Positions 5,635-24,770 of a stretch of DNA of 64,000 nt are shown piece by piece (position 1 is the first letter of the stretch; every line of letters begins with the position of its first letter). The notes beneath the pieces were generated by a model that worked only from the letters and a program-made list of their open reading frames with translations, did not search any database and was not told where the DNA came from. Source of the DNA: an uncultured Gammaproteobacteria bacterium (GTDB lineage Bacteria > Patescibacteriota > Patescibacteriia > UBA11705 > JABHMO01); the NCBI GenBank assembly GCA_964590105.1, contig CAZPYM010000001.1:1022-65021 (forward strand), written 5' to 3'. A program made the position numbers and the translations under genes.

Positions 5635-5710
5635 AACAAGTTGGCTAGTTTAAGCGGCAGTGGATGGGTCCAAGAACTGCTGAATAAACCAGCCAACTAA
5701 AAATTATTAC

Positions 5711-6901: not shown

Positions 6902-7312
6902 CGGGTGAGACATTACAAAAAACAAATAACAAATTACAAACAAATTACAATACATAAATTACAATTACAAATAAACAATAAATTGTAAAAGAAAATGTCA
7001 ATAATGATGAATGAAGCGCAAATCGTTTCATAATAAAAAAGTGTTATTTGAAACTTTTGTTTTATAGCTTGTGATTTGTTGTTTTATGCATTATTGTTTG
7101 TAGTTTGTGTCTTGTAATTTGTAATTTATATAGAAGTCACTAATTAATTTTATAATATAAATCCTAAAGAACTCTCTCTAGGTTGTAGCGGTCAGAAAGG
7201 TCGGCCCGGTTTCCGGGTGGCGGCTACATAATAAAGTATATAATTGTCAGTGTTTAATTATTTCTCTTTTTGGGAAGCGATTAAACGTTGGCTAAAAGAA
7301 AACTATTTAAGT

Positions 7313-10300
7313 ATGAAAAAAGTTTTAACACTAGGTGTTGTTTTGACAACAATCTTGTGGACTATAGGGATTGCCGCTTTTGTTCCAGTTGCTTCTGCTG
7401 CCACTTTGTCAGCGGGCGATTTGATCAAAGCTAGCGGAGCCGCAGTATATTTTTATGCTGCTGACGGCAAACGCTATACATTCCCTACAGAATCCACATA
7501 CAAAACTTGGTACGCTGATTTTTCCAGCGTAAAAACCATTACTGATGATGAATTGGCGGCTATTACTTTGGCTGGCAATGTAGTTGTCCGTCCTGGCACC
7601 GAGCTTGTCAAAATCACCACAGTTCCAAAGGTTTTCGCTGTATCGCCAAATGGTAAATTATCCTGGGTCAAGACCGAGCCAGCTGCCAAGGCGCTTTATG
7701 GTGACAATTGGAACCAAAGGATAATTGATATTCCTGATGGATTTTGGGTAAATTATATAGATACAGGCGCTGAATTAAATGGCACAGCCTTCCCAGAAGG
7801 CCAACTTGTTTCTCCTACTGATTCCGCAAATATCTACTATGTAGGTGCTGAAGGCAAGTGGAACCTGATCAAGGACGAAGCTGCTTTTACAGCCAATAAA
7901 TGGGCTTGGGGAAATGTAGTTGAAACATCTATTGCAATGGTTGCCGACGGTACAGAAATTACTGCCGTTGTCAGCGCTAATATTGATGCTTCACAAGGTG
8001 GCGGAGGTGGAACCGGGGTTGTTGTAGTTGCCGCTGGCAGTCTGTCAGTTGCGCTTAATACCACTACTCCTGCCGTTACTACTATTCCAACCAATGCAAC
8101 AGCCGCGGCCGCTAATGTCCCATTCACTTATGTGGACTTTACTGCCGGCAGTTCAGCTGTTACAGTTACTGGTTTGAAAGTAACCAGGACCGGACTAAGT
8201 CAGAACGCCGCTTTTGCAGCTATCAAGCTGTTTGATGGCGATACTCAAATTGGCACCAGCCAATCATTGAATTCATCAAACCAGGCTGTCTTCAATAATA
8301 TTTCTTTTGAAGTTCCTGCCAACAGCACAAAGACGCTGACTCTTGCGGCCACTATGACTCTTTCCGCGGCCTACACCAATCACATTCTTGCTTTGGGAAT
8401 TGCCGCAGCTAGCGATATTACAACTACTGCTACTCTTTCCGGTTTATTCCCTGTTACAGGCAATTCAATGACATTGAATTCCAGCATCACAATCGGTACA
8501 GCTACCCTTGCTAATGGTTCACTTGGAACAAGAAATACCACGAACCTAACTGTTGACACTGATGCCAAAGATGTTCGGTTCACACAGGTTAAGATTAGCG
8601 GCGGTTCTGGTGAGGCCGTAACTGTAAAATCAGTTACAGCTCTAAAGAATGGAACAGCGGCTAGCGCTGACATAACAAATATTCGTTTGGTCAATGACAC
8701 AACAGGCGAAACATTGAAGACTGTTACTACCCTGGATTCTTCAGGCAGAGCTGTTTTCAGCGGATTAAATGTTGCGATTGCCAAGGGCGAGTTTGTGGAA
8801 TTGTCAGTTTTGGCTGACATGAACAATTCCGGAGCCGGTCGAACAATAGCGTTTGACCTGTATGATGGTAATGCCTTTACAATTTCTGTTGTTGGCAATA
8901 CCTATGGATTTGGCATTACGCCGACTTCATCCGGAACAAACTTCTGCGGTGGCACTCCTTGGAACTGCACAGCGCAGACTATTAATCAGGGTTATTTGAC
9001 AGCCAGTTTGAGCGCCAATACTCCTGCCACAGGTAATGTCGCGCTTGGAGCTTCCAAAGTTCCATTGCTGAAATATAATCTGACTGCAGGTGGTGAAGGT
9101 ATCAATGTAACTTCAACTTTGTTGACAATTACAACCGGTACTGCCGAATTGAGCAAGATTACCCAGATTTCGATTTATGACAAGGATGATAAGATCGTAG
9201 CCGGACCGCAGGATGCTACAACAGCTTCCGCCGGTTCACAGAATTTGACCTTTACTGACGCTTATACAGTTCCGGCTGGTATTAACGAATATACCATATA
9301 CGCCAACACAGCCAGCGACATGTCAGCTCTTGATACTGTTTACGTTGCTTTGACTGTTAATGGTATTACTGCCAAAGGCGCTGATTCAGGCAAAACTACC
9401 TACACTACTTCAGCCGGTGCTACTGTTCCGCCTGCTTCTGTCATAACTGGCAAAACGCAGACGATCAAAGGACCGACTTTGAGAGTTATTACTGCCGCGA
9501 CTCCTATTGCTTCAACTTTTGTGGTAAATTCACAAGATGTTGACTTGGCTTACTTTGATTTGGATGCTACTGCTGGTGGTGAAGACATGAAAATAACTTC
9601 ACTTGTTGTTACTCAGACAGCCGTCACCCCGGCAAATCTATTGAATCTTGAATTGTGGGGCGATGCTGATAATACTGATGCTGACAATACAGTTGCTAAA
9701 CTGGGAACAACCAGCTCAACAGCTACTGGCGCCGCTACTAACACCTTTACTTTTCAAGTTCCTTTGAAGATTAGTAAATCAAAGATTAGCAGACTGACCT
9801 TGAAGGGTGATGTTATCGGAACAAGCGGAACAAACTTGTTCAAGATTGTTTCTGACAATGCTACAGCTGTTGGTTGGACAACAGGACAGACTGCTAGCAA
9901 GACTTACAGTGGAACTGGCCAGGCTCATACTTTGACAGCATCTGGTTCTTTGATAGTAACTGCTGCTGCTGGTAGAGCTGCTGCTGCTCAATTTGTAGCC
10001 GGCGCTACCGGTCAGTCAATGATGAGCTACAAGTTCCAAGCAACAAACGAAGAAGTCAGTGTAACTGATTTCTACATTGCCACAACCGGCACAGCGGCAA
10101 ACGCTAATATTGGCGTAGTCAAGCTTTATCTTGACGGCGCGCAAGTCGGTTCACTCAATGGTTATTCGCTTGACGCATATGGAATTGCTCACATTGTTCT
10201 AGACAGCGGAGTATTCACTGCCAAGAAGAGTCCTAGCTATACAACTTTGGATATTAAGGTTGACTTGGCTAGCAAAGATAACTTGGCTGATATATCTACC

Positions 10301-11179
10301 ATTGAGATCGGATTAGGCGACTCTGACGGTGATGATTCAGTTCTTGGTTATAACAGTGAATTTGATGGTGAATGGGGCGCAAATGGCGCTGCTGCTGCTG
10401 GCAGTTATTTAATAGTAGCTACTGGCATAAGTTCAGGCGCGACCGTTACTCCTGCTAATATTACTTCTACTGGCGCTGCAGGTGGTACTGTTGTGGCTTC
10501 TTACGTCAATTACCTGTATGACGGTATTCCAATCGTTACAGCCAATACAAGCACTCCTAGCGGTACAGCAATTGCTGGCGCGAACAAGGAAGTGTTCAGA
10601 TTTGACGTTGAGGCTGTTGGCGATGATGTCAGTATTGATGAGTTGGAATTCTGCGTGGGCGGTACTGCGACAAACAACGGCAATTTCGCGGCTGGTGCAG
10701 GTGATGTAACTCTAATGAGTTCTGACCTGAATACCACTTATGCGACTTTGACTCAAGCTTTGTTTGACGCTTATTGGACAGCTTCTGCGTTAGGAGCCGG
10801 GGTCTATCAGCCATTGGCTCCAGATAATGCGGCTGGTTCAACTTGTTTCTCACTTGGTGGCACAGCAGGGGTAACTTCCAAGACAACCACTATGGTTGAT
10901 TGGACTAACTCAGTTGACCCTGTAATTGCTGCAGGTACTACGTCGACCTTTAGATTGTTCGGTGACACAACCGGTATTGCGACAAACGAAACATTGCAGA
11001 TCAGTTTGAAAGCTAATCCAACAGCTGCATATCAGACTACGGCCGCTGGTTTGGAATGGTATAACACATCTGCTGGAATCGTTGATAACTTTACCTCTGG
11101 TTCTGAGAGTGTTGCCGCAGCTGAAGGCGCAACTCTGACAAAGAATCTACCTATCCAAGGTGGAGCACTTGTCTACTAA
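7313..11179 (+). CDS. large secreted surface (S-layer/adhesin-like) protein, Thr/Ala/Gly-rich
   Basis: The longest ORF starts at 7244, but the ATG at 7313 gives a canonical signal peptide (MKKVLTLGVVLTTILWTIGIAAFVPVASAA). There are about 1290 aa of repetitive T/A/G/S-rich beta-rich sequence. The N-terminal domain is homologous to the C-terminus of the 12442-14028 protein. Confidence 0.8.
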   Translation: MKKVLTLGVVLTTILWTIGIAAFVPVASAATLSAGDLIKASGAAVYFYAADGKRYTFPTESTYKTWYADFSSVKTITDDELAAITLAGNVVVRPGTELVKITTVPKVFAVSPNGKLSWVKTEPAAKALYGDNWNQRIIDIPDGFWVNYIDTGAELNGTAFPEGQLVSPTDSANIYYVGAEGKWNLIKDEAAFTANKWAWGNVVETSIAMVADGTEITAVVSANIDASQGGGGGTGVVVVAAGSLSVALNTTTPAVTTIPTNATAAAANVPFTYVDFTAGSSAVTVTGLKVTRTGLSQNAAFAAIKLFDGDTQIGTSQSLNSSNQAVFNNISFEVPANSTKTLTLAATMTLSAAYTNHILALGIAAASDITTTATLSGLFPVTGNSMTLNSSITIGTATLANGSLGTRNTTNLTVDTDAKDVRFTQVKISGGSGEAVTVKSVTALKNGTAASADITNIRLVNDTTGETLKTVTTLDSSGRAVFSGLNVAIAKGEFVELSVLADMNNSGAGRTIAFDLYDGNAFTISVVGNTYGFGITPTSSGTNFCGGTPWNCTAQTINQGYLTASLSANTPATGNVALGASKVPLLKYNLTAGGEGINVTSTLLTITTGTAELSKITQISIYDKDDKIVAGPQDATTASAGSQNLTFTDAYTVPAGINEYTIYANTASDMSALDTVYVALTVNGITAKGADSGKTTYTTSAGATVPPASVITGKTQTIKGPTLRVITAATPIASTFVVNSQDVDLAYFDLDATAGGEDMKITSLVVTQTAVTPANLLNLELWGDADNTDADNTVAKLGTTSSTATGAATNTFTFQVPLKISKSKISRLTLKGDVIGTSGTNLFKIVSDNATAVGWTTGQTASKTYSGTGQAHTLTASGSLIVTAAAGRAAAAQFVAGATGQSMMSYKFQATNEEVSVTDFYIATTGTAANANIGVVKLYLDGAQVGSLNGYSLDAYGIAHIVLDSGVFTAKKSPSYTTLDIKVDLASKDNLADISTIEIGLGDSDGDDSVLGYNSEFDGEWGANGAAAAGSYLIVATGISSGATVTPANITSTGAAGGTVVASYVNYLYDGIPIVTANTSTPSGTAIAGANKEVFRFDVEAVGDDVSIDELEFCVGGTATNNGNFAAGAGDVTLMSSDLNTTYATLTQALFDAYWTASALGAGVYQPLAPDNAAGSTCFSLGGTAGVTSKTTTMVDWTNSVDPVIAAGTTSTFRLFGDTTGIATNETLQISLKANPTAAYQTTAAGLEWYNTSAGIVDNFTSGSESVAAAEGATLTKNLPIQGGALVY

Positions 11180-11205
11180 TTACTGCTAGAAATTCAGATA
11201 TTGGA

Positions 11206-11236
11206 AAGGGTCCCGCCATCGGCGGGACCCTTTTAT
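11206..11236 (+). terminator. rho-independent terminator
   Basis: aagggtcccgcc-atc-ggcgggaccctt has a 12-bp GC stem followed by ttttatt. It lies directly after the stop at 11179. Confidence 0.8.
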
Positions 11237-11394
11237 TATTGGAAAATATGTTATATAATGAAATTAAGAAACTGGAAACTGGAAATTGGGGTTGATATTG
11301 AAAGTTGGGATTTGTTTTAATTTCCGCTTTTCATTGGTTTATTTCTCACCCATTTACCTAGTTACATAAGTACTTAATTTCTTTATTCAATTTT

Positions 11395-12054
11395 ATGAAA
11401 AAACGAAACATTGCGATAATCATTGTTGTGATTATCCTGGTAATAGGAGGATTGGTTTTTGTTAAGCTTCATGGCGCTGATTTGCAGGTCAGCGAGTTGA
11501 TGAAAATAAATACTACGCTTGAAATGAATGAGGCTCAACAGGCATTGTTTAGTGAACTGGAAGGTAATCTTAAAAATGACCCAAGTGATTACAGTTCGTT
11601 ATTTAAATTAGCTAGACTAAAGCAGGACATGCTTGATTTTGATGGCGCGGCTGAGCTGTATAATAAACTTTTAGAAACAAAACCGGGCGATACTTTGGTT
11701 ATGAATAATCTGGGTTCAATATATTATGATTCCAAGCAGTATGACAAAGCCGAAGAACTACAATTACAAATTATTGCGAAAACGCCTAAATGGATAGGTG
11801 CATACAAGGAATTGATGATGATTTATCGATATCAGTTAAAAGACAAGGCGCCGACTTTAGAAGATAAATTGCTTTATGGCTATAATAATTTTGCCGAGTA
11901 TAAACTTGATTTTACCAGTATGTTGTCTGTTTATTATGATGAAATAATGAATGATCCTATGAAAGCAAAGCCGTACTATGAAGAGCTGGCAGAATTACTT
12001 CCGGAAGATGCACAGGTCCAGGCGCGGTTGATTGAGATAAAGAATATAAAGTAG
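11395..12054 (+). CDS. tetratricopeptide (TPR) repeat protein, N-terminal TM anchor
   Basis: 219 aa. N-terminal hydrophobic helix, then TPR-like repeats (AAELYNKLLETKPGD..; YDKAEELQLQIIAKTP..). Confidence 0.7.
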   Translation: MKKRNIAIIIVVIILVIGGLVFVKLHGADLQVSELMKINTTLEMNEAQQALFSELEGNLKNDPSDYSSLFKLARLKQDMLDFDGAAELYNKLLETKPGDTLVMNNLGSIYYDSKQYDKAEELQLQIIAKTPKWIGAYKELMMIYRYQLKDKAPTLEDKLLYGYNNFAEYKLDFTSMLSVYYDEIMNDPMKAKPYYEELAELLPEDAQVQARLIEIKNIK

Positions 12055-12441: not shown

Positions 12442-14028
12442 ATGATTAAAAAAATTACATTTTTATTGGTCATTGCTCTCATGATGTTTCCTTTTCTTGG
12501 CAAGGCGTCAAATGTGGTTATTGTTAATTTAAATCAGGTCAGCATGGAAACTTATTTTTATCCGTTGACTTTTGACAACCTGGCGCTGGACTTTTCAGTT
12601 GTGCCGGCGCAGAGCGATGTCTTGCAGACTTTGGTCATAAAAAATTATGGTAGCGCTCGGTTTAATTATGAAATTGAAAAATTGGTTTTGTGGTCAAGCG
12701 CCGGAAGTGATTTTATGGGATTCGCCGTTGACACCAAGCTTGGCGAAGCGACTTATGATTCTGGCAATCAAGTCTGGGTATTCAAATCTCTGAATGCCAC
12801 TGTGCCACTTAGCGGCAAGCGATTTTTTGTAACAGCTGAAACCAAAAAGAACGGTAGCGATAGCAAAACTTTTCAGTTTTTAATGCCGGCATATTCTGAT
12901 GTGGACGCTGATGGTGTTTATGATATGGGAGATACGGGGATGTTTTTTGAATCAAAAACTATTTTGCCGGAATCAGGATTATTGAACATTGATTTTGCCA
13001 CATATAAAGCAACTACCCATGATTCGTCCGGCCCGGTGACAGTTATTACTAATCTAAAAAATGGACAAACAATAACCAACTCCACTGATTTTACCATCAC
13101 AGGAGAGTCAAGAGATCAGGGCGGCTCAAACCCTGATACGCTGGAGGTTTGCATTGATGGGGGCTGCGCCAGCGCGACTAATACTAGCTCGTATTTTTTG
13201 AAATGGAAATATGACTGGACAGATATTAGCGATGGCAGTCATTCCATTTATACAAAAACCAAAGATTCGAATAACAATTTGACAACTTCAGCCACTATGA
13301 CAGTGACTAAAACAACAGTTCAAGTGGTATCAACCGCCAATTCGATCGTGTCTTTGAATAAATCTGCAGCCAAGGCGGACGGCAGCGATTCGATTCTTGT
13401 TACCGCTATAATCAAGGATTCAAACAAGCAGGCAATGCAGGGAAAAACAGTTTATTTTTCTGAATTTACTGCCGGCGGAGTCGGCGTGGTTGACAGCGAA
13501 AAAGTTACTGATGCCAGTGGGCAGGTAGTTTTTAGCGTCAAATCTTCAGCGGTCGGGACTTTTCGGGTCAGCATTATTGTTGAGGGCGGCAGTATTATAG
13601 ATGATAATATCCAGATACAGTTCATCAAAGCCGCGTCGGAAGCAATCAGTTATACTGATGGTGAATTTATCAAATTGGCTGATCAAAAAGCAGTTTATTT
13701 TCTTGACAAAAAAAATATTCGCCATGCCTATCCTTCGCAGGCGATTTGGGAGAGCTATTGGGGAAATGATTTTTCGTTTGTAAAAATTGTAAGCGCGGAC
13801 GCGATGGCCGGTTATTCTCTCGGCGTAAATGTGCCATTCAAAGCCGGCATTCTGATGAAAATCCCGTCTGTGGCAAAGGTTTATAAAGTTGAAGCCAATG
13901 GCGTTATCCATTGGATCAAGACAGAAGCAACCGCAAAAAGTTTGTACGGCAATGGCTGGGCCGCGCTGGTAAAAGACTTGTCAGAAGCGTTTTTTACGGA
14001 TTATACGGTGGGGGCGGATATTGATTAG
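12442..14028 (+). CDS. secreted protein with bacterial Ig-like (Big_1-type) domain
   Basis: Signal peptide (MIKKITFLLVIALMMFPFLGKASN). A Big_1-like segment 'VSLNKSAAKADGSDSILVTAIIKD..GKTVYF..DASGQVVFSVKS..GTFRVSII'. The C-terminal domain is homologous to the N-terminus of the 7313-11179 protein. Confidence 0.8.
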   Translation: MIKKITFLLVIALMMFPFLGKASNVVIVNLNQVSMETYFYPLTFDNLALDFSVVPAQSDVLQTLVIKNYGSARFNYEIEKLVLWSSAGSDFMGFAVDTKLGEATYDSGNQVWVFKSLNATVPLSGKRFFVTAETKKNGSDSKTFQFLMPAYSDVDADGVYDMGDTGMFFESKTILPESGLLNIDFATYKATTHDSSGPVTVITNLKNGQTITNSTDFTITGESRDQGGSNPDTLEVCIDGGCASATNTSSYFLKWKYDWTDISDGSHSIYTKTKDSNNNLTTSATMTVTKTTVQVVSTANSIVSLNKSAAKADGSDSILVTAIIKDSNKQAMQGKTVYFSEFTAGGVGVVDSEKVTDASGQVVFSVKSSAVGTFRVSIIVEGGSIIDDNIQIQFIKAASEAISYTDGEFIKLADQKAVYFLDKKNIRHAYPSQAIWESYWGNDFSFVKIVSADAMAGYSLGVNVPFKAGILMKIPSVAKVYKVEANGVIHWIKTEATAKSLYGNGWAALVKDLSEAFFTDYTVGADID

Positions 14029-14776: not shown

Positions 14777-14788
14777 GATTGCTTCGTC

Positions 14789-15087: not shown

Positions 15088-15804
15088 ATGAAAAAAGAAA
15101 AACCAATCGCCCCGGCTTTAGAGGGTGAAAAAAAATCCGAAGCAAAACCAAAGTACGACAAGCCGTTTCGCCAGCCAGGCGGAGTGTACTTTCACTACGG
15201 CGAAGTGATCGGGCACAAAAATGTTTTCGTGACAAAAGAATACATGGATTTGCTGGTCAATGCTTTCAAGCTGGCAGAACTGAAGCAGGATATAAAAAAC
15301 CTTGCCTATGTGATCATGCCAAACTTCTTTTTCTGGATGTTTCGTCTGCCGGAAAAAATGGATAATCCCGCTGATATTTATGGCGAAGTCAAGGGCCAAG
15401 TGGCCACGGAAGTGATGAAATATTTACGCAAGGAAATCAAGGAAGGCGCTTTTGATTTGCTCGACATCTTTAAACCAAATGACAGGGTCGGTCGCTCGTT
15501 GCCGCAGAAAATATTATGGAGCTTCGAAGAGCAGGCCAAAGCATTTGAAAATAATAAGCGCTACAAAATTTGGACGCCAAAAACGCGGACCTGCCCGATT
15601 GATAATGATGAAAAATTGCGCGCGAAATTGGCGCAAATCAAAAAAGCGCCGGTGAGCGATCGCTGGAGACTGGTGGAGTCGGCGGAAAAATACCCGTACC
15701 TTTATCTGTCCGAGGAAGTAGCTACGCTTGGCGAGGCCGGAGTTGATCTGGCGTCGTTTTGCCCGGTTATTCAGGTCAATGAATCAGTTGAAGTAAAAAC
15801 CTAG
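15088..15804 (+). CDS. IS200/RAYT-like (COG1943-type) transposase-related protein with degenerate HUH motif
   Basis: 'NLAYVIMPNFFFWMFRLPE' aligns with the family consensus 'AYVLMPNHYHLLLETPE', so both HUH histidines are replaced by Phe. 'RYKIWTPK' sits where the family has 'RYKAVLV', and 'EKYPYLY' near the C-terminus is also family-like. The catalytic-Tyr region is divergent. Family assignment by eye. Confidence 0.45.
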   Translation: MKKEKPIAPALEGEKKSEAKPKYDKPFRQPGGVYFHYGEVIGHKNVFVTKEYMDLLVNAFKLAELKQDIKNLAYVIMPNFFFWMFRLPEKMDNPADIYGEVKGQVATEVMKYLRKEIKEGAFDLLDIFKPNDRVGRSLPQKILWSFEEQAKAFENNKRYKIWTPKTRTCPIDNDEKLRAKLAQIKKAPVSDRWRLVESAEKYPYLYLSEEVATLGEAGVDLASFCPVIQVNESVEVKT

Positions 15805-15918
15805 TTTAGTTAATTCTGCCTAGCGGTGGAAGAACTAATTAATAACCCTGGGGCCGGCGGATTATATAGCGAATTTTATGGGAATTGCGTGTGACTCGCC
15901 GGCCCCTTTGAAAAATAT

Positions 15919-18165
15919 ATGAAATATATAGTTTGTTTAATGTTGATGTTTTTCTTGACAATTCCTTTTGACTTATTATTCCGTCAGGCGTGGGCGCAGG
16001 TTCCCTTGTGTTCAAATACCATAACAGACAGTCTTATTTATCAATACATTGTAATTGGTTGCGGTGAGAACCCGTGTCAAAGTTGGTTGAAGGATTTGTT
16101 GGAAAATATTGAAACAAGTGAAACCCCAAATCAGTCTTCGCAAAGCTTAGCCGGTTCAGGGCAAGCAGATGAAACAAGTGAAACGGATTTAATTTCGCAG
16201 GTGATTTTTGTGGACGGCGAAATCTTTTCACCGGCGGAAACGCTTGAAAAAGCGGAAGATAGTATAGAGGGTGAAAAATCCCTCGACTCCCCCGCACTTG
16301 GCGAAGTCGCTCGGGATGACAATGAGGTGGAACAAGAAGAGGCACAAGGTATTACGGCTAACCTAGTTGAAATTGGGCCAAAACAGATCAGAATCAATGA
16401 AATTGTTGCCGTGCCAATTGCGGGACAAAATGAGTGGGTTGAGCTTTTTAATACTTTGGATTTTGCGGTTGACCTTGACGGTTGGCAGTTGATTGAAGGC
16501 GCAGGAAAAAAAACAGAATTGTCCGGACAGATTCAGCCCGGCGGATATTTGGTTTTTGATAAAAATAATTTGAATAACAGTGGCGACGTTGTTGTTTTGC
16601 AAAATTCCGCTGGCCAGGAAATTGACCGGGTGAGCTATGGTGACTGGGAAGCGGCGACAGCGCCGGCAGCTCCGAGCGGCAATTCAATTGGTTTATTTGG
16701 CAATGAATACAAGGAAACCGAAGTTGTAACGCCGGAGCAGAAGAATGTTTTTCAGTTAGAGGTGGAAGAGGTGGAAGAGGTGGAAGAGGTGGAAGAAGTG
16801 GAAGAAGTTGATCCAGTTGATCAAGTTAACCAAGTTGATCAAGTTAACCAAGTTGATCAAGTTAACCAAGTTGATCAAGTTAATCAAGCGGATCAAGCGG
16901 AGCAAATTGGAACAATAGAAGAAAAAGCCGTTGAATATCAGTATTCAGACAAAATAATAATCAATGAATTTTTGGCGGATCCGCTTGGAAGCGATGACGC
17001 GGAATGGATTGAACTTTACAATAGCGGGGCTGAAGATGTGAATTTATTCGGCTGGAAGTTGGATGACGCAGAGGGCGGCAGTAAAGTGTTTGAAATAAAA
17101 GATCAGATTATTATCAAAGAAAATGATTACCTGATATTTTCGAAAGAAGAAACAGGTTTGGTCCTGAATAATTCATCAGATCGAATCGCTCTCATTGATC
17201 CGGCTGGCAAAATAGTCAGTTCAATTGAATACCAAAATCCGAAAGAAAATTACAGCAGGGCATTGATTGATGACGAATGGCAGGATACATCAATATTAAC
17301 CCCCGGAAAAAAGAATGAAAAACCCGGCTTGCAAATGGCGCAATTTATTGGCAAGGAAAGCGAGGAAAATAGCAAAATCCAAGCAAGTTCTTTATCAGCC
17401 GTCAAAATATATGATTTAAATGAAGTCAGGGATTTGCCCTTGAAAACAAAAGTTATAACCAGGGGGCAAGTGGCCGTACTGCCGAATGTTTTCAGTAAAA
17501 ATTTGATCTATCTGGCCGGTAGCGGCATGCAGATATCTTTTTCCAAAGCAGACTGGCCGGAAATGAACATCGGCGACCTGGTGGAAATTGAAGGCACTCT
17601 TTCGGAAAGTTATGGAGAAAAAAGAATTTTATTGAAAGATAAGCAGGAAATTAAAATTATTGAAGCCGGCGATTTGCCGGCGCCGCATTTAATTGATTCA
17701 AGGCAAATCACAGAAGATGTTGAAGGTTTTTTTGTCCAGATTGAGGGGACTTTGGTAGAAAAAAATGCCAGCAAGATGACTTTTGCTGATGAATATGGGG
17801 AATTCTTTGTTTATCTGAAACAGGGAGCGCAAATTAGTTCAAAAATTCTGAGTTTGAATGATAAAATTCAAATCACGGGAATAGTTAGTCAATATAATGA
17901 TGAATATCGGATTTTGCCGAGAAGCCAGAATGATCTGGTGAATTTTACTTGGTTGGAGAATCCGGTGGCGGGTGAAGTTCAGCAGGGCGAGCAGCAAATT
18001 CCGGCTAGTTCAAGCAGGATTAAAATACTGTGGGGATTACTGACCGGTTTTGTGATCTTGTGTTTTTGCAATTTGTATTTTCTTTGGCAAAAAAAAGCGC
18101 AGGTCGCAGAAAAATTTCAAGCTTTGAGAAAAATAGTTGTCCATAGGTGGAGGCCGGAACCTTAG
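15919..18165 (+). CDS. secreted/membrane-anchored protein with two lamin-tail domains (LTD)
   Basis: Signal peptide. Two LTD motifs ('IRINEIVAVP..NEWVELFN..DLDGWQLIEG..GGYLVFD' and 'IIINEFLADP..AEWIELYN..NLFGWKLDD..NDYLIFS'). An internal EVEEV.../QVDQVN repeat linker. A C-terminal TM helix. The gene ends in TAG. Confidence 0.8.
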   Translation: MKYIVCLMLMFFLTIPFDLLFRQAWAQVPLCSNTITDSLIYQYIVIGCGENPCQSWLKDLLENIETSETPNQSSQSLAGSGQADETSETDLISQVIFVDGEIFSPAETLEKAEDSIEGEKSLDSPALGEVARDDNEVEQEEAQGITANLVEIGPKQIRINEIVAVPIAGQNEWVELFNTLDFAVDLDGWQLIEGAGKKTELSGQIQPGGYLVFDKNNLNNSGDVVVLQNSAGQEIDRVSYGDWEAATAPAAPSGNSIGLFGNEYKETEVVTPEQKNVFQLEVEEVEEVEEVEEVEEVDPVDQVNQVDQVNQVDQVNQVDQVNQADQAEQIGTIEEKAVEYQYSDKIIINEFLADPLGSDDAEWIELYNSGAEDVNLFGWKLDDAEGGSKVFEIKDQIIIKENDYLIFSKEETGLVLNNSSDRIALIDPAGKIVSSIEYQNPKENYSRALIDDEWQDTSILTPGKKNEKPGLQMAQFIGKESEENSKIQASSLSAVKIYDLNEVRDLPLKTKVITRGQVAVLPNVFSKNLIYLAGSGMQISFSKADWPEMNIGDLVEIEGTLSESYGEKRILLKDKQEIKIIEAGDLPAPHLIDSRQITEDVEGFFVQIEGTLVEKNASKMTFADEYGEFFVYLKQGAQISSKILSLNDKIQITGIVSQYNDEYRILPRSQNDLVNFTWLENPVAGEVQQGEQQIPASSSRIKILWGLLTGFVILCFCNLYFLWQKKAQVAEKFQALRKIVVHRWRPEP
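16753..16905 (+). repeat. in-frame coding tandem repeats (9-bp gaggtggaa x5, then 18-bp caagttgatcaagttaac x~4)
   Basis: They encode EVEEVEEVEEVEEVEEV and DQVNQVDQVNQVDQVNQVDQVNQ in the LTD protein linker. All are multiples of 3. Confidence 0.9.
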
Positions 18166-18364: not shown

Positions 18365-21253
18365 TTGATGCGTAGTCATTTGAAGAAAATCTGGCTTAGT
18401 TTTAAAAGTAATCTCAAGCGGTTTTTTGGGGTTGTTAATTTTGTTTTTGTTCCGAAACGTCGGGCTTTCAGAATAGGATTAGTTTTGACTATCCTGATTA
18501 GCGTTTTTCTTGTTGGCACATCTGTCTATGCTGCAGGCGACATAAGCGACAAAATCCTGGATTTTTTCAACTGGGTTCTTTTCTATATTGCCATGGCGCT
18601 CGGCTGGGTTGCTCTAAAAGTATTTGCCTTGGTTATCATTGTCAGTTCATATAATAATTTTGTCACTTCAGCCGCCGTCACCAAGGGCTGGGTTTTGATC
18701 AGGGACGTGTGCAATTTGTTCTTTGTCCTGATACTTTTGGTGATTGCTTTTAACATTATTCTCGGCGTAGAAAAATATTCGCCAAAGAAAATGTTGTTCA
18801 ATGTTGTTATTGCCGCGATCTTGGTGAATTTTAGTAAATTAATTTGCGGGTTGGTAATCGATTTTGGCCAGGTGGTCATGATGACTTTTGTTAATGGCTA
18901 TTCAGCAACAGCCGGCGCGAATTTAGTTGAGGGGCTTGGTTTGAATTATCTTTTAAAAATGAGTGGAGACAATGCCTCGGGGGGGGCGAAGCAAATTGAG
19001 GCGCCGACCAATCTTAGTATTTTCATTGCCTTATTTATAGCGATATTTATTTTGATAATGACAATTTTTGTAACGATTTTCATTCTGGCGCTTCTGGTTA
19101 TGCGCATTGTTCAATTATGGATTTTAGTGGTTTTGTCGCCGGCCGCTTTTATGCTTGAGGCGATTCCTATCGGCGGCATGCAGAAAAGAGCTGGCGACTG
19201 GTGGAGCAAATTCGGCTGGACAGTGGCGGTTGGGCCTTTTATGGCTTTTTTCCTCTGGCTTAGTTTGCTGGTGATGTCAGATCCAGGGAAAAACATGCTG
19301 GCGGATAACATGAAGACCGCGGATGAATTGCAAGCAAAATCAGCCGGATCTACTGTGTCTGGGATTTCGCATCTGGATAAACTCGCTCAGTCGGCTATTG
19401 GACTAGCGCTACTTATGGCTAGTTTAGTGATCGCGCAGGAAGCGGGCGGAGTGGTTGGCGGGGCAGCTGGAAAATTTCAAGGGTATACTGGTAAGATCGC
19501 CAAATCAGTGGGCGGAAGGATGACCGGTTATAACGCGGGTAGAGATAGAGGCGTTGCCATGTATAAGGGATATGCTGAAAAACAGGGCGCAAAAAAAGCA
19601 GAAACAATGGCAAAATATTCAAGGGTGGGAGAAAAAGCGTTTGCGGCTAAAGAGAGCGGTATCCGAGGTTTAAAAAGAACTGCGGCTTTGCCATATACAG
19701 CGGGAAAAATGCTAGCTAAAGGGGGCGCTAAGGGCGCTAAATGGGGCGGTAGAAAGATTGCTGAAACTAAGACAGGAAAAGCTGTTGCTGCAACATATCA
19801 AAAAGTTAAAGGAAAGGCTGGTGGCGCTTTAGCGAATGCAAAGGGGAAAATTGGTGATCGTTTGGCGCAATTGCCTGGAGCTGAATTTGCGGGAAAAGCC
19901 ACAAGAGCTGTTGGAGGTTTTGTTGGAGAAAAAGCAAAGGAGGTCTGGGCAAAGACTGACAAGGCCGGCGTGAGAAATTTGGTAGCCGCTGATGCTGTTG
20001 ATCAGTCAATTCTAAAAAAAGCCAGAGAACAGGGTGGTGAAAATTTATCTGCCAGAAATATCAATAAAGAAGAAGATTTGCGTCGAGTTCTTAATGATGG
20101 CGGCGAAAATAAAGGTTCCAGAGTGGCCGCAGCTATGAAACTTGCCAAAGCCGGTGTCATAGAAAGTCCGAAAGAAGCAAAGCTGATAAGATCTCTGACC
20201 AAGGGAGACAGGGAAGCTTCAGATACAGTACGAGAAGATTTAATGAAGAAACAAGCCAATCATGCTTTTAATATGGATGATCCGAGAGAAGTTGATACAC
20301 TCCATGAAAAAATAAAGAACGGCGACATTGATATAACAAAACAGAACGCATCGGCCTACGGCGACGCCCGGTTTATGCAGGTGAGCAGAGAGGCTCTGGG
20401 TGATAAAGTTTTCGGCAAGAAAATTGGCGAAGTAGCCAAGCGTTCGGCGGAGCACAAAGAAACGGCTACCGGAACGGTCCGCGATATGGCCCAGAGCCAG
20501 CACGCTGAAATAGCGAGATTGCAGTCACTTGCCGCAGATGGAAATCAACCGGAAGCAAAACGTCAAGAAGCGGAAGCAGCTCTTCCAGAAAAGCAAAAAT
20601 CAGCTGATGATTTCAGAAGAACAGTGGCTGAAGTTACTAATGATTTAAATGAGGCTTTTGGCGCTAGAAATGTTGACGGAAGTTTAAACAAGGTGGATGG
20701 CAAGGTTAAAATCGATCCTTCTCAAGAGGCAAATATGGGACAATATATTAGAGGGCTTTCAGGAAAAAGACTGGCTGATTTTGATATGAAGGAAGACGCT
20801 CTTAGCCATATTGCAGTCAATGTGAGCGTTCAACAGCTGGCAAATTTGGCGATGTCAAATGAACCTGGTTCAAATGACAAGGTCCAGCAAATAGTAGAAA
20901 GGATCCATGAAGTAGGCGATACAAAACGCATTACCCAAGTTGCCGGTAATCAAGTGGTAATGGATGCTTTGGGTCAAGAAATAAGAACAAAAGTTGAGGC
21001 CGTTAAAGCGGCTACGCCAGCGCCAACACCGGCAGGTGTTAAAACGGCCGGTGCCGTCGCGCCAGCAGGAGGCGCAGCAACTGCGCCGACAGAAGGCGCA
21101 TCAGCCGCTCCGGCAGAAGGTGCAACAGCCGCAGAGCCGGCAAAGTCACCACTTATAGTTGGCGCAAGTGATGCTGATTTTAATAAAGCAAAACAGGATA
21201 TGAATAAAGCCGGCGGATTTGAGTCAGCGCTCCGCGGCGGCAAAGTGTCATAA
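18365..21253 (+). CDS. VirB6/PrgH-like polytopic membrane protein with long Lys/Ala/Gly-rich C-terminal extension
   Basis: 962 aa. Six or more TM helices in the first 320 aa, at the position of a VirB6 homologue in a Gram-positive-type T4SS operon. It is followed by a roughly 640-aa hydrophilic tail full of 'AGKxAKxG' repeats and an Ala/Pro-rich C-terminus. Confidence 0.5.
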   Translation: MMRSHLKKIWLSFKSNLKRFFGVVNFVFVPKRRAFRIGLVLTILISVFLVGTSVYAAGDISDKILDFFNWVLFYIAMALGWVALKVFALVIIVSSYNNFVTSAAVTKGWVLIRDVCNLFFVLILLVIAFNIILGVEKYSPKKMLFNVVIAAILVNFSKLICGLVIDFGQVVMMTFVNGYSATAGANLVEGLGLNYLLKMSGDNASGGAKQIEAPTNLSIFIALFIAIFILIMTIFVTIFILALLVMRIVQLWILVVLSPAAFMLEAIPIGGMQKRAGDWWSKFGWTVAVGPFMAFFLWLSLLVMSDPGKNMLADNMKTADELQAKSAGSTVSGISHLDKLAQSAIGLALLMASLVIAQEAGGVVGGAAGKFQGYTGKIAKSVGGRMTGYNAGRDRGVAMYKGYAEKQGAKKAETMAKYSRVGEKAFAAKESGIRGLKRTAALPYTAGKMLAKGGAKGAKWGGRKIAETKTGKAVAATYQKVKGKAGGALANAKGKIGDRLAQLPGAEFAGKATRAVGGFVGEKAKEVWAKTDKAGVRNLVAADAVDQSILKKAREQGGENLSARNINKEEDLRRVLNDGGENKGSRVAAAMKLAKAGVIESPKEAKLIRSLTKGDREASDTVREDLMKKQANHAFNMDDPREVDTLHEKIKNGDIDITKQNASAYGDARFMQVSREALGDKVFGKKIGEVAKRSAEHKETATGTVRDMAQSQHAEIARLQSLAADGNQPEAKRQEAEAALPEKQKSADDFRRTVAEVTNDLNEAFGARNVDGSLNKVDGKVKIDPSQEANMGQYIRGLSGKRLADFDMKEDALSHIAVNVSVQQLANLAMSNEPGSNDKVQQIVERIHEVGDTKRITQVAGNQVVMDALGQEIRTKVEAVKAATPAPTPAGVKTAGAVAPAGGAATAPTEGASAAPAEGATAAEPAKSPLIVGASDADFNKAKQDMNKAGGFESALRGGKVS

Positions 21254-21278
21254 GTAAAGAAAGTATAATCAAGGAACA

Positions 21279-22829
21279 ATGAATTCAAAGACAAAACCAA
21301 CAAAACCATTAGCGCAAATATTGCCACTAAATGTTGCCGCGGCGCTGAATGTTGATTTTGGTGGTCAAACTAATGTTGAGATAGCCGGAAAATTTGGCTT
21401 ATCAGTCGGGCAACTGGCAAGAATGACTGGACTCATCGGCGAGATTTATAATAAAAAAATACCAGTTGGTCAGATTGATTTTGAGCTGGCCTCGCGTTTG
21501 GGTTTGGCAAAAGATAAAGTTGCAAAACTTGCTTTGGAAATTTGCGGTAAACGATTAATGATTGTTAATACGGTCTGGTTTGACGGCGCAGTAGGGAAGA
21601 AAATCAAAGAACTTGGTGGTGTGGCGGATGATTATAATGAATTTATTGCTGAATATGTGGAAAATGTTATCAGCGAAAAAGCAGAAGAAACGGCTACGCA
21701 AAGAATAGAGCAAGAAGAGGAAAAAATTACATTGAAAAAAGCTATAAAGAAAAAGATTGAAGAGGATCCAATTATGTTGAAAGATCCGCTTGCAGAAAAG
21801 CAATCGCTGAAAAAAGTTTTTGGCACTAATGTTGTACATGTATTAAGTTCAGGGGATTATAGATTGAAAATAGAATTAAATATCCGATTGATCACTTTGT
21901 TATTAAACGATGAGCCGGAGCAGGTTTTTCACAAAGAACTTCTGACTGCCCTGTACAACAATCATGAAGTTTTAACTAGTAAAAGAATATTATTAAAAGA
22001 CGAAAAAGTTGAGCCGACTATTAGCAACTGGTTAAAAGATTATGTCGGGTCAGTCGGACAGGATGAAACCGGTAGCGCCATTCAAAAAGCCCAGTACTTT
22101 ACTTCGTCGCCTAATATCCGAGCATTACTAAAAGAAGAAAAAGAGTTGGTCGACGGATTATTTAAATTTTATATTGCTTTGCAGAATTTTTATAGCAATG
22201 TCAGAAAAATGGACATGGAAGATATTTATATTTTTCCTTTTACTCCAAAAGAACAAGAGTCTTTATTAAAAGAAATTAGCGAACTTGAATCGGAAGAAGA
22301 AGAAGAAATTGCGTCGGTTGAAGGAGAAAAAGCAGAAGTAGGGACGATTAACATAATGGAACTATATCAGGACAAACCTGACGATCGTCAGAAAATTGAT
22401 GAGGAAAAGCAAAAGATTGTTCAAAATACGCGTAAAGAATATGACAAGATCGCGGATGCGATGGAGCCATTTTTATTAAATCGAAAGAAGCATAGTATTT
22501 TAGCGTGTCTTGAGCTTTTGGTTGAAACGGGCGCTCTCGATAATATGCTCGGCCAGGATGAGCGTTATCAGGGGTTTTTGTCTGGCTATTTCAAACGCAA
22601 CAATTTGCAGGCAGAAGACGAAAAGTTCAAAAAAGATCCGTATCAGGCAAAATACGTGCAAGCATTTTTACGATTTGTGTTTTTGGAAAGACTTGGCCTG
22701 GCGCCCGAAGAAGGCGCGCGGATCGCTGCCAATTATTCCAATATTTTTCGCAATAAAGGCGCGATTCGATATTCGCAACTAGCTTATTTGGATTTAAGCG
22801 ATAATAAATTTAAGTGGAGTGAATTGTAG
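21279..22829 (+). CDS. hypothetical protein (T4SS-like operon member)
   Basis: 516 aa, cytoplasmic-looking, Glu/Lys-rich. It sits 25 bp downstream of the VirB6-like gene. No recognisable motif. Confidence 0.6.
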   Translation: MNSKTKPTKPLAQILPLNVAAALNVDFGGQTNVEIAGKFGLSVGQLARMTGLIGEIYNKKIPVGQIDFELASRLGLAKDKVAKLALEICGKRLMIVNTVWFDGAVGKKIKELGGVADDYNEFIAEYVENVISEKAEETATQRIEQEEEKITLKKAIKKKIEEDPIMLKDPLAEKQSLKKVFGTNVVHVLSSGDYRLKIELNIRLITLLLNDEPEQVFHKELLTALYNNHEVLTSKRILLKDEKVEPTISNWLKDYVGSVGQDETGSAIQKAQYFTSSPNIRALLKEEKELVDGLFKFYIALQNFYSNVRKMDMEDIYIFPFTPKEQESLLKEISELESEEEEEIASVEGEKAEVGTINIMELYQDKPDDRQKIDEEKQKIVQNTRKEYDKIADAMEPFLLNRKKHSILACLELLVETGALDNMLGQDERYQGFLSGYFKRNNLQAEDEKFKKDPYQAKYVQAFLRFVFLERLGLAPEEGARIAANYSNIFRNKGAIRYSQLAYLDLSDNKFKWSEL

Positions 22830-22904
22830 GGGCGGGGAGTAGTAATTAGTAAGTAGTGAGATCTTCACTCACCATTCACCACTTTTCACTCGTTTCTGTT
22901 TAAT

Positions 22905-24113
22905 ATGCTAAACGATTATATATTAGTAAAAGACAAAGACGGCGAGCTGAAATATTTCAAGGACGGCAAATTTTTTAGTGTTGAGGAAATCGCCGAACAA
23001 AACAAGCAACGGGTTTTGCAAGCCCGGGAGCCAAAAAAGAAAGAATTAAAGCCTGACTTTACTTTGGAAACGCAAAAAAAAGCTGCTGTCAAGCCGATAA
23101 TTATTAAAAAAGAACAAGAAAAACCAATAATTATTGAAAAAGTACCTAAAAAATCAAGCGCCATTGAAAAAGCGCTGGAAAAAACGGTGCGTCCGCTAAT
23201 TCCGCCATTGCCTGCTCATGAAATTGAGTTTGAACAATTGGCCGGCGAAGATGATTTCAATAGCAAAAGATTGGCGGAACAAAAGCTTGTCGGCGTTAAA
23301 GTTGACGAGGCAATAAAAAAATTAAAAATTCAATTCAGCGATCCGCAGATCGAGAGCCGTTTCCGAAATATTTTAACCACTTTTTTCCGCGGAGTCCGAA
23401 CTGTGAGAGAACTCGGTTATATGCTTGGATTGCCGAAAGTCAGCGGAGGATTGGAATTACCAAAAGATAAAATAAGTTTAATATTGGCGGTTTTGGAACA
23501 AGAGCTCGTGGAAATGAACAAAGAGCGCCGTCAGATCGCGGCCAGAATAGAACAAAAGCCGGTTGATTTGGAGCACCGGCTGGAGCCGCCGCCGCCCTTG
23601 ATTATTAAAAAACCTGAGGATCGTTCAGCGGTTGAAAAAACAGCCCGCCGGCTTCAATCCTCTCCGTCTTTGATTAGGAATGAAGTTGGCGCAGATTTAA
23701 GCAGGACTCGCGTTAGCCGGCCGCAACCCGCTCTGCAAAAAAATGTTTTTGCACCGCGGCCAAGAATTGAAGACATGAAGGGGAATCGTCAATTAATCGG
23801 ACCGGTTGAAGAATTGGAAACCATGGAGCTAGGCGATTTTCGTCGGCTTGGCCGAGAAGAACAGGAAATAAAAAAACACTTGCTGGAAAAATTCAAGGTG
23901 CTTGCCGACCAGTCGTTATTAAAAAAATTACAAGGATTAAAAGCCTGGAAATCTTCACCTGTGTATAAAATATATTTATCGATGACTGTTGCAGGGATTA
24001 GAAACAGAGTGCCTCTTTCTCAGGTAATTGAAGATCGTCAATTAAATCATCAAGCGACGTTGACGTTAAGCGAATATGAAATGATTGGACAGCTGAATCA
24101 GGAATTGGAGTAG
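22905..24113 (+). CDS. hypothetical protein (T4SS-like operon member)
   Basis: 402 aa, with a Lys/Pro/Ile-rich N-terminus. No recognisable motif. Confidence 0.6.
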   Translation: MLNDYILVKDKDGELKYFKDGKFFSVEEIAEQNKQRVLQAREPKKKELKPDFTLETQKKAAVKPIIIKKEQEKPIIIEKVPKKSSAIEKALEKTVRPLIPPLPAHEIEFEQLAGEDDFNSKRLAEQKLVGVKVDEAIKKLKIQFSDPQIESRFRNILTTFFRGVRTVRELGYMLGLPKVSGGLELPKDKISLILAVLEQELVEMNKERRQIAARIEQKPVDLEHRLEPPPPLIIKKPEDRSAVEKTARRLQSSPSLIRNEVGADLSRTRVSRPQPALQKNVFAPRPRIEDMKGNRQLIGPVEELETMELGDFRRLGREEQEIKKHLLEKFKVLADQSLLKKLQGLKAWKSSPVYKIYLSMTVAGIRNRVPLSQVIEDRQLNHQATLTLSEYEMIGQLNQELE

Positions 24114-24211
24114 CAATAGAAAAGAAACTGGAAACTGGAAATTAGGGTTTATTGGAGAAAAGAAAAGCCCTGAATTATGCTTGGTAATATTAGATACGAG
24201 AAACAAAAATT

Positions 24212-24658
24212 ATGCAGCAATTTATCGTGCCCCAATTTATTGATGTGGAAGATAAAATTATTGGCCCGATCACTACGCGGCAATTTGTTATTGTGTTGGT
24301 CGGAGCGCTCGTAACTTTTATTTTATTTAAATTATTAGCTTTTGCGTATTTTGTTTTATCAGCCATCGTGGTGATGCCACTTGCGGCGATGCTGGCTTTT
24401 GCTCGGGTCAATGGCCGACCGGTTCATTTTTTTCTGTTGAATTTTCTTCAGACCTCAAAAAGATCAAAGTTGCGCGTTTGGAATAGAGAAGCGTATGTGA
24501 ATGTAGTCCAGGTGGTGGAAAGCCAAATTAAAGAAAAACCAAAGGTGCAGGCAGTCAAAGCAGCTGTTTCCGGTTCCCGTCTGCGCGATATTTCGCTGGT
24601 GGTAAATACTGGTGGCATTTATCAGGGTGAAGAGATTGCGAATGATTTATCTCAATAA
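24212..24658 (+). CDS. PrgI/VirB3-like small membrane protein
   Basis: The N-terminal 'VPQFIDVEDKIIGPITTRQFVIVLVGALVTF' matches the PrgI/TcpE-family signature (xPkdl..yedk..G.lt.RQ..) followed by two TM helices. It lies directly upstream of the VirB4 genes, as in Gram-positive T4SS operons. Confidence 0.55.
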   Translation: MQQFIVPQFIDVEDKIIGPITTRQFVIVLVGALVTFILFKLLAFAYFVLSAIVVMPLAAMLAFARVNGRPVHFFLLNFLQTSKRSKLRVWNREAYVNVVQVVESQIKEKPKVQAVKAAVSGSRLRDISLVVNTGGIYQGEEIANDLSQ

Positions 24659-24770
24659 TAATTTTAATTAAATAATTTCTTCCCCGCTTTAGCGGGATCT
24701 CCTACGTTGGCAGACGGTCAGACTAAGGCCTGCTTGTCGACAGGCAGGCCTGGCGGAAATTAAATTATAT

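Follow-up and report, generated by a model that had tools for sequence, protein, structure and literature searches.

What is the function of a transposase-like gene that has lost the residues of its active site, yet is kept under purifying selection and at a fixed position among genes for surface proteins and secretion? This question is raised by a gene in the 64,000 nucleotides analysed here (contig CAZPYM010000001.1 of assembly GCA_964590105.1, positions 1,022 to 65,021), a stretch of Patescibacterial DNA that is called the window throughout. The gene encodes a relative of the REP (repetitive extragenic palindrome)-associated tyrosine transposases (RAYTs, also TnpA_REP). RAYTs are the textbook 'domesticated' bacterial transposases and, to our knowledge, those characterised and surveyed all retain the catalytic HUH motif and tyrosine. 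The evidence presented below indicates that this gene, hereafter dRAYT, is very probably an exapted, catalytically dead RAYT. As an overall explanation, we consider it likely that dRAYT is a domesticated, catalytically inactivated RAYT that binds single-stranded or hairpin nucleic acid without cleaving it and serves its own locus.

15088..15804, + strand: dRAYT open reading frame (ORF), ATG start, 238 aa; catalytically inactivated RAYT/TnpA_REP homologue

dRAYT is a homologue of REP-associated tyrosine transposases

A previous reading of this gene, made from its letters only (the sequence-only reading), had assigned it to the RAYT/IS200-like branch of the Y1/HUH family, and the profile searches agreed with this assignment. 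The NCBIfam model NF047646 ('REP-associated tyrosine transposase') matched residues 27-204 with its positions 5-145 of 146 (E=3.7e-15, 56 bits), as it matched all 27 of the 27 aligned relatives (best E=8.5e-19). Because the score of 56 bits falls under the curated equivalog cutoff of this model, 80 bits, the protein would not be automatically named RAYT by NCBI; family members are labelled 'hypothetical protein' at NCBI and 'REP element-mobilizing transposase RayT' at IMG. The Pfam family Y1_Tnp (PF01797), which the sequence-only reading had also pointed to, was found with weak matches in 8 of the 27 relatives (best 4e-5) but not in the window protein, whose Pfam scan gave zero matches. When the profile of the family alignment was compared with the PDB, E. 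coli TnpA_REP (4ER8) was detected with E=3.2e-5, and in this alignment 'vvLPEHMHCiW' lies opposite 'vimPnfFyWlF' and 'vdYIyiNPvkhgW' opposite 'levikkaPvseRW'; the PDB search with the single dRAYT sequence gave no match. Since NF047646, 4ER8 and, in relatives, Y1_Tnp all match, the similarity around the HUH strand is not a product of chance, which was the outcome that the sequence-only reading had foreseen if no Y1/HUH profile were significant.

The structural prediction led to the same family. The AlphaFold2 model, computed from the alignment, reached a pLDDT of 81 and a pTM of 0.77, and its beta-alpha-beta-beta...beta-alpha topology follows the strand and helix order of the Y1 HUH enzymes, with an additional helical insert. 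Foldseek against the PDB ranked 4ER8_A first (E=2.4e-8, TM-score 0.69, target-normalised), and the next 28 structures were all IS200/IS605 TnpA proteins (ISDra2, IS200, IS608; E from 1e-5 to 1e-3). dRAYT is therefore a genuine homologue of the RAYT/TnpA_REP proteins. Its N-terminal tail (residues 1-25) is disordered and Lys-rich, and its pI is 8.9 (family median, 9.2). The protein has no signal peptide, which is consistent with a cytoplasmic character, and the proteins encoded by both neighbouring genes have one. A PHROGs search with dRAYT returned as its sole result a weak match to a family of unknown function, PADLOC detected nothing, and Rfam found four tRNAs and nothing else over the 64-kb window.

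The active site has been lost in the whole family

The metal ligands of E. coli TnpA_REP are H59, H61, N119, H123 and E161, and its nucleophile is Y115 (PMC3479197). In the HMMER alignment and in a MAFFT alignment of 147 sequences, these positions could be followed into two segments of dRAYT:

15322..15336, + strand: former HUH strand, N79-F80-F81-F82-W83 (NFFFW), opposite E58-H59-M60-H61-C62 of E. coli TnpA_REP
15628..15663, + strand: former catalytic helix, L181-R192 (LAQIKKAPVSDR), with Q183 for Tyr115, A187 for Asn119 and D190 for His123

H59, M60 and H61 of the E. coli protein correspond to F80, F81 and F82, while Y115, N119 and H123 correspond to Q183, A187 and D190. Two statements of the sequence-only reading, that both HUH histidines are Phe and that the region of the catalytic tyrosine is divergent, are thus correct: codons 15322-15336 include F80 and F82, the tyrosine is gone, and a metal ligand is now Ala. 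Scored against bona fide RAYTs, F80, F82, Q183 and A187 stand in the places of H59, H61, Y115 and N119. Because the defining catalytic features have failed, dRAYT should be filed as a RAYT-derived pseudo-enzyme and not as a transposase.

The same columns were inspected in 44 members of the core family. The first-His column contains F, Y or H (His in 9/44), whereas the second contains Y, F, L, N, M, C, Q, S or H, with His in a single member (P0018, 1/44); none of the 44 has both histidines together. The Tyr column is hypervariable (Q/R/T/L/V/I/M/S/C/A/F/K), and Tyr itself occurs only in the basal P0044. A search of 1.84 billion representative sequences gave 475 matches, and outside the core family (about 100 more distant relatives) essentially every full-length match retains MPxHxH and Y-I-H-x-N-P. 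In a neighbour-joining tree the dead family is monophyletic, P0044/P0049 form its first branch, and its sister group is the intact RAYT-like set P0048/P0186/P0045. The simplest history would be a single recruitment event, in which the second His may have been lost at the base and the Tyr soon after, the first-His position then drifting among aromatics and His.

dRAYT is conserved as an intact, single-copy gene

A search of 5.8 billion clustered proteins recovered 41 dRAYT clusters with 45-63% identity and intact ORFs throughout, whose origin is wholly Patescibacteria/Falkowbacteria metagenome-assembled genomes or metagenomes. In the family alignment the members are full-length and 32 residues are invariant. 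The ratio of nonsynonymous to synonymous substitution rates was low for the pair L005 and L013, which share 94% of their amino acids (dN/dS=0.04, dS=0.90). Over the orthologous loci, identity ranges from 39 to 59% for dRAYT, compared with 36-45% for the Big_1 protein and 33-45% for the LTD protein encoded on either side. dRAYT is the one RAYT-like ORF of the 64-kb window, where no second was found. These results show that dRAYT is under strong purifying selection and single-copy in the available sequence. The description of the gene as catalytically dead and possibly domesticated, given in the sequence-only reading, is sustained by the 41 clusters at 45-63% identity, by the dN/dS of 0.04 and by the fixed synteny described below.

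dRAYT has a fixed position in a surface-protein and secretion locus

We compared the surroundings of 11 distinct dRAYT orthologues (NCBI, ENA, JGI and Logan assemblies) and of GTDB species representatives, in which the neighbours from the window were located by tblastn. The window genes concerned are:

5077-5634, + strand: ECF sigma factor, first gene of the upstream part of the conserved block (5077..12054)
5711-6901, + strand: DUF5667 protein, upstream part of the conserved block
7244-11179, + strand: giant protein of 1311 aa, upstream part of the conserved block
11395-12054, + strand: TPR protein, upstream part of the conserved block
12442..14028, + strand: Big_1/Invasin_D3 protein, 528 aa, secreted; upstream syntenic neighbour of dRAYT
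15919..18165, + strand: protein with two LTD domains and a DUF5689/OB-like region, 748 aa, signal peptide and C-terminal transmembrane helix; downstream syntenic neighbour of dRAYT
18365..28724, + strand: core of a type IV secretion system (T4SS) and competence gene (962-aa, 516-aa and 402-aa proteins, PrgI/VirB3, TraC-like, VirB4 ATPase, 193-aa protein, ComF-like)
27403-27984, + strand: conserved 193-aa protein of unknown family, directly after VirB4
28005-28724, + strand: ComF-like protein (double zinc ribbon and phosphoribosyltransferase), which fits the comF linkage of class ABY1 T4SS loci

Wherever the flanks were long enough for a judgement, the loci had one and the same gene order: a GT4 glycosyltransferase, (HTH_17), the ECF sigma factor, DUF5667, a protein of 1200-1400 aa, (TPR), Big_1, dRAYT and LTD, followed by proteins of ~960-1050, ~520 and ~400 aa, PrgI/VirB3, TraC-like and VirB4. 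In the window, the 193-aa protein and then the ComF-like protein come after VirB4. The dRAYT and LTD genes are adjacent in every locus, separated by 24-266 nt, and all loci with the Big_1-dRAYT-LTD block belong to Falkowbacteria-like Patescibacteria. The OB-fold and DUF5689 signals of the LTD neighbour are weak; its paralogues carry ComEA-type HHH and SNase (staphylococcal-nuclease) domains, and for the more distant LTD/OB paralogues no RAYT neighbour was found. The 962-aa protein has no Pfam match in the window, and its L008 orthologue has a weak precomputed match to TrbL_3/VirB6-like. Taken together, the ComF protein downstream, the OB-fold signal of the LTD protein and the HHH and SNase domains of its paralogues suggest a DNA-related context for the locus.

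The T4SS core itself is more widespread. Among 80 metagenomic loci recovered with the TraC-like protein, dRAYT was detectable in four (L052, L055, L056 and L059), all of them from the near clade (TraC-like identity of at least 68%); a fifth near-clade locus, L054, has an arrangement of the L004 type, in which dRAYT is expected beyond the 10-kb flank. The LTD gene and the T4SS core are divided from each other by a hairpin that resembles a terminator and by a conserved promoter with an extended -10 (TGTGgTATAAT). This promoter-like sequence, TGTGTATAAACTTTGTTG ... TTTGTGgTATAAT, lies just 5' of the gene for the 962-aa protein (window ~18300-18345, L013 13000-13055, L008 12890-12945) and is preceded by a strong hairpin, and for this reason the T4SS core looks like a transcription unit of its own. 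No relaxase was detected among the window proteins scanned. Most Patescibacterial T4SS lack a relaxase, and in class ABY1 the loci are linked to comF, recG and radA; the survey that reports this mentions no HUH, transposase or RAYT-like gene in Patescibacterial loci (PMC12102498).

Other sequence features of the locus were recorded. Within the LTD gene (16758-16897), in-frame tandem repeats of 9 bp and 18 bp specify (EEV)n and (DQVNQV)n, a linker of low complexity and probably of variable length. In intergenic regions of the cluster, AT-rich ACAAATTACAAATAACAAATTACAAACAA-type runs occur near the sigma and giant-protein genes (1096-1121, 4686-4714, 6922-6943 and 7112-7127), and the exact 22-mer AAGAAACTGGAAACTGGAAATT is found at 11266-11287 and 24122-24143, 5' of the TPR gene and of prgI, respectively; both may be shared regulatory sites. 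In L008, a run of ~16 G at ~9900-9920, ~45 nt 5' of the dRAYT start, could serve slipped-strand phase variation or be an artefact of the assembly.

The adjacent repeats belong to an inserted GIY-YIG element

The sequence-only reading placed dRAYT between a 40-bp tandem repeat array and a GC-rich region, and both are present, at 14794-14984 and as a hairpin at 15848-15907. It further proposed that dRAYT perhaps binds the adjacent repeats. This proposal is not supported, since the repeats accompany a GIY-YIG insertion that is particular to this genome:

14266..15019, + strand: inserted Ssn-like element, outside the dRAYT unit (GIY-YIG gene, inverted repeat pair and 40-bp tandem array)
14316-14386: inverted repeat pair (14316-14332 / 14370-14386) 5' of the GIY-YIG gene, with a TGTCATTGCGAG-type motif
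14477-14776, + strand: GIY-YIG gene, 99 aa (PF01541, E=3.5e-15)
14794-14984: 40-bp tandem array 3' of the GIY-YIG gene, 4.8 copies with 94% matches, with the same TGTCATTGCGAG-type motif

The array ends ~100 bp 5' of the dRAYT start codon. All seven copies of the CTCGCAATGACA motif in the 64 kb lie at 14320-14979, on either side of the GIY-YIG gene, and the GIY-YIG gene with its repeats occupies the gap between Big_1 and dRAYT only in L001-L003, which are assemblies of the window's own organism. In L005, L006, L013 and L008 the gap is without an inserted gene, and in L004 it has a 23S_rRNA_IVP gene. Two GIY-YIG paralogues were found in other cluster gaps of L007 (7240-7860 and 13380-14110), each flanked on both sides by its own palindromes: the one 51% identical to the window protein has TCGCAATGAC-type repeats, and the one at 42% has a different palindrome, GTCATGGTTCGAGAGCCTCACCATGAC. 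This suggests that a GIY-YIG nuclease and its repeat move or co-evolve as a unit.

The same arrangement has been reported for Ssn, small GIY-YIG nucleases of single-stranded DNA (ssDNA) with hairpin repeats of their own at their flanks (Chenal et al. 2025, PMC11893778). The window element shares with Ssn the single-domain GIY-YIG protein of ~99 aa, hairpin-forming repeats on both sides and paralogues with their own repeat variants; its repeats begin with TGTCAT (CGTCAT in the Ssn NTS), and only this head is shared. In contrast, the published degenerate SRM pattern HGTCWYN(0-2)YYVSBRH... gives 0 matches on both strands of the window. As part of an independently inserted Ssn-like element, the 40-bp repeats are not the target of dRAYT; this candidate was rejected since they are confined around the GIY-YIG gene, are absent from the orthologous loci and have counterparts that are cognate to the L007 paralogues.

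The gaps that adjoin dRAYT are insertion hot spots for small selfish-looking genes, as seen with the window GIY-YIG gene and with the 23S_rRNA_IVP (four-helix-bundle) gene 5' of dRAYT in L004 (9519-9899). In L017 an ORF at ~10600-10900 lies directly 3' of dRAYT, and by eye its translation looks similar. A minus-strand ORF at 14630-15019 of the window is a translation artefact of the 40-bp repeats.

Residues of the hairpin-binding helix are partly retained

The residues with which E. coli TnpA_REP contacts its REP hairpin were also followed into dRAYT. K81, on helix alpha-C, which enters the hairpin's minor groove, corresponds to the invariant K102:

15391..15393, + strand: K102 codon, family-invariant, opposite K81 of E. 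coli TnpA_REP

R97, which makes a base contact, corresponds to K165, within a near-invariant W-x-P-K-T; the contact residue R46 is K, R or Q in the dRAYT family; and at the critical contact K82 there is a Lys only in the family consensus, the window protein having Gly. The alignments thus show that the basic residues of the RAYT hairpin-binding helix are partly retained. Together with the modelled fold, this makes binding of single-stranded or hairpin nucleic acid a plausible, if tentative, candidate for the activity that dRAYT has kept.

We then considered the structured sequences of the locus. Beside dRAYT, the following element was found:

15848..15907, + strand: GC-rich stem-loop with a 10-bp perfect stem (GGGGCCGGCG/CGCCGGCCCC), ending 11 nt 5' of the LTD start codon

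The predicted DNA fold of this stem-loop has -15.5 kcal/mol (z=-3.6). Of the 11 orthologous loci in which the sequence downstream of dRAYT was inspected, 10 (all but L017) have a hairpin between dRAYT and LTD; the sequence of this hairpin differs between species. Another candidate was a 34-nt element, GGCGGGATTCrGGAATCCCGCCTACAsAAGATGG, with two exact copies in the window: one at 2941-2974, 5' of the GT4 gene and 12 kb upstream of dRAYT, and one at 18171-18204, between LTD and the T4SS core and 2.4 kb downstream. On the minus strand it reads GTAG directly followed by a GC-rich hairpin, which is the classical REP signature. Palindromes of the form GTAGGG...CCCTAC occur at comparable places in L005, L007, L010, L012 and L013, and also in T4SS loci that are free of dRAYT; L013 has two copies of the GTAG-tagged hairpins and L010 five sites (detections on both strands merged).

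dRAYT is also bracketed by TAATTAAT(T/A)AACC boxes at 15068-15080 and 15836-15848, and TAATTAAT occurs five times in the 64 kb. TAATTA(AT) boxes flank dRAYT in 9 of 13 loci, compared with 0.8 expected from a whole-locus background that is mostly coding sequence. These boxes, which resemble a -10 or an AT-rich intergenic signal, may serve dRAYT and the LTD gene as -10 elements or as a shared operator.

Possible roles of dRAYT

In the mechanism that we propose, dRAYT would no longer cut or join DNA and would bind single-stranded or hairpin nucleic acid without cleavage, with aromatic residues (F/Y) standing in for the histidines that faced the substrate on the old active-site sheet. It would serve its own locus, either by acting on structured intergenic hairpins, in a regulatory role, or by handling ssDNA for the relaxase-less T4SS/ComF machinery. 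Our results cannot separate these two roles.

Several observations weigh against this explanation. The case for nucleic-acid binding comes from the fold and a few aligned residues, and the dN/dS value from a single pair, L005/L013 being the sole pair near enough for an unsaturated estimate. A binding target for dRAYT was not found among the adjacent repeats, the locus hairpins, the GTAG hairpins and the species-specific repeats examined. Hairpins of -25 to -45 kcal/mol are present in 8 of 11 intergenic gaps of the cluster, so the stem-loop at 15848-15907 was rejected as a specific cognate site and is probably a generic intergenic hairpin; the GC-rich region noticed in the sequence-only reading exists, but it is not distinctive within the cluster. 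The GTAG-tagged hairpins were rejected as a cognate REP family on their near-equal densities, 0.50 per 10 kb in dRAYT loci vs 0.42 per 10 kb in dRAYT-free T4SS loci, and no species-specific repeat recurred consistently at fixed places in the orthologous loci. With regard to the T4SS, neither dRAYT nor the LTD protein is encoded within 10 kb of the more distant Patescibacterial cores, and dRAYT is therefore a lineage-specific addition to the sigma/surface-protein unit and not a universal T4SS part; the terminator-like hairpin and promoter between LTD and the T4SS core likewise tie dRAYT more to that unit than to the T4SS. Finally, a non-canonical activity keeps a small probability in view of D190, a position that is E or D across the family, and of further conserved acidic residues.

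Other explanations were weighed against the same evidence. The fold could have been re-used outside nucleic-acid binding, for example in protein-protein contacts as an adaptor or chaperone, with the secreted LTD or Big_1 proteins or the ECF sigma/anti-sigma pair as partners. Points in its favour are that the LTD gene strictly adjoins dRAYT in every locus, with a gap of 24-266 nt, that the locus searches found no cognate DNA element, and that KNVFVT and RS(x)P, invariant motifs particular to this family, lie outside the RAYT-conserved regions; nevertheless, we regard it as unlikely in view of the basic pI, the Lys-rich tail and the aligned hairpin-contact lysines that have been kept, and we know of no precedent for a Y1 HUH fold turned protein adaptor or chaperone. 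It is rather improbable that the dead RAYT is a DNA-recognition component of the relaxase-less T4SS/ComF machinery, which would pilot or protect single-stranded hairpin DNA entering or leaving the cell together with the LTD/OB surface protein, a relative of ComEA-type DNA receptors. A functionless relic of a RAYT insertion, kept by chance or by operon read-through, would account for the loss of the catalytic residues, and Quentin et al. 2018 discarded Y1 sequences without core motifs as probably non-functional (PMC6006769); this is hardly credible for a gene with intact full-length ORFs in 41 of 41 clusters despite ~40-60% divergence, with 32 invariant residues and a dN/dS of 0.04, and with a conservation that equals or exceeds that of its neighbours.

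Binding of the adjacent 40-bp tandem repeats or of the CTCGCAATGACA palindromes, in the manner of RAYT and REP, would agree with the ~100 bp that separate the array end from the dRAYT start codon and with the REPs that classically flank RAYT genes (PMC3479197; PMC6006769). It is made very improbable by the distribution of the repeats, which lie to either side of the GIY-YIG gene and are found nowhere else in the 64 kb, by the lack of both gene and repeats at the orthologous position in all other species, and by the L007 GIY-YIG paralogues, which carry their own cognate palindromes, as in Ssn (PMC11893778). Equally doubtful is a cryptic, divergent relaxase or transposase that is active via other residues (such as the conserved Y34, Y74, Y202 or Y204, and E64, D68 or D190) and would be the 'missing relaxase' of the T4SS. 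dRAYT does have the HUH fold, that of the superfamily of conjugative relaxases, and lies within a block that contains a T4SS; several Tyr and acidic residues are invariant in the family, the basal P0044 retains the canonical Tyr, and the authors of the T4SS survey explicitly allow for 'very different relaxases yet to be found' (PMC12102498). However, substitutions affect four of the five active-site residues that can be aligned, Y202 and Y204 fall in the non-catalytic 'DWPWSS' segment of RAYTs, and most of the Patescibacterial T4SS loci examined are without dRAYT. Moreover, the first-His position varies between F, Y and H, and many different residues occur at the Tyr position, which points to released constraint and not to a new catalytic residue. 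A non-cleaving, exapted RAYT that serves its own locus is thus the explanation that we retain.

Significance

A dRAYT clade that is without catalysis, yet under purifying selection and locked in position, offers a clean case of an exapted Y1 HUH pseudo-enzyme. Its locus lies in the genomic region thought most important for the epibiotic lifestyle of Patescibacteria, whose T4SS lacks a relaxase and has an unknown substrate (PMC12102498). As dRAYT is small and soluble-looking, its binding specificity is directly testable and might give a handle on the nucleic acid, if any, that the locus deals with. If a DNA-recognition role with the T4SS/ComF machinery were true, it would represent a new route by which a selfish transposase becomes part of the machinery that ultra-small epibiotic bacteria use for host interaction or DNA uptake. 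The IMG label 'REP element-mobilizing transposase RayT' overstates what the dRAYT sequence is capable of, the resemblance to RAYT being one of fold and, presumably, of binding only.

Comparison with known systems

In the limited literature searched, we came across no account of a Y1 family that is conserved and yet catalytically dead, which is absence of evidence only. The closest characterised relative is E. coli TnpA_REP/RAYT (4ER8; NF047646, COG1943), the best profile and structural match, with which dRAYT shares the order of beta-sheet and helices, the conserved GG-x-YF, MPN, W-x-P-K/R, NPV-like and (D/E)YP(Y/W) segments and part of the basic residues of the hairpin-binding helix. In contrast to TnpA_REP, the HUH motif of the dRAYT family has become F/Y/H-F-Y/F, the Tyr nucleophile is gone and N119 is Ala. 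dRAYT is also ~70 residues longer (a helical insert at ~107-160 and the Lys-rich N-terminal tail), is without conserved flanking REP/BIME repeats in the orthologous loci, and remains below the family cutoff (56 vs 80 bits).

The domesticated RAYTs that are single-copy and vertically inherited (TnpA_REP class 2, Quentin et al. 2018, PMC6006769; REPIN-RAYT, PMC3337134) resemble dRAYT in copy number and fixed position, but they keep HUH and Tyr and are thought to process REP/REPIN DNA, whereas dRAYT is without catalysis or a linked REP population. A second fixed RAYT was found in the sister group. P0048/P0186 (L047/L048/L049) is single-copy and syntenic in the order PGA_cap - RAYT - KsgA - ... 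- >3000-aa protein, as seen in a pair of metagenomic lineages with 58% identity to each other, and judged by its HxH and Tyr it is still catalytically competent-looking. We also considered whether intact relatives occupy the dRAYT T4SS locus; this was rejected, as P0048/P0186 have the synteny just described and the Peribacteria relative L019 is elsewhere.

With the IS200/IS605 TnpA proteins (ISDra2, IS608, IS200), dRAYT shares the Y1 HUH fold, as seen in the model and the Foldseek matches, but it has no insertion-sequence ends or tnpB neighbour, it is present as one copy in the window and at a syntenic position, and the catalytic residues are absent. It differs from the conjugative HUH relaxases (MOB) in being without the three-His metal site and Tyr, and its best structural matches are Y1 transposases and not relaxases. 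The downstream genes correspond to the MPF_FATA-like chromosomal T4SS of Patescibacteria (Quinonero-Coronel et al. 2025, PMC12102498), with PrgI/VirB3, TraC-like and VirB4 followed by comF as in ABY1; dRAYT differs from this system in its restriction to one sub-clade and in its place in the upstream sigma/surface-protein unit.

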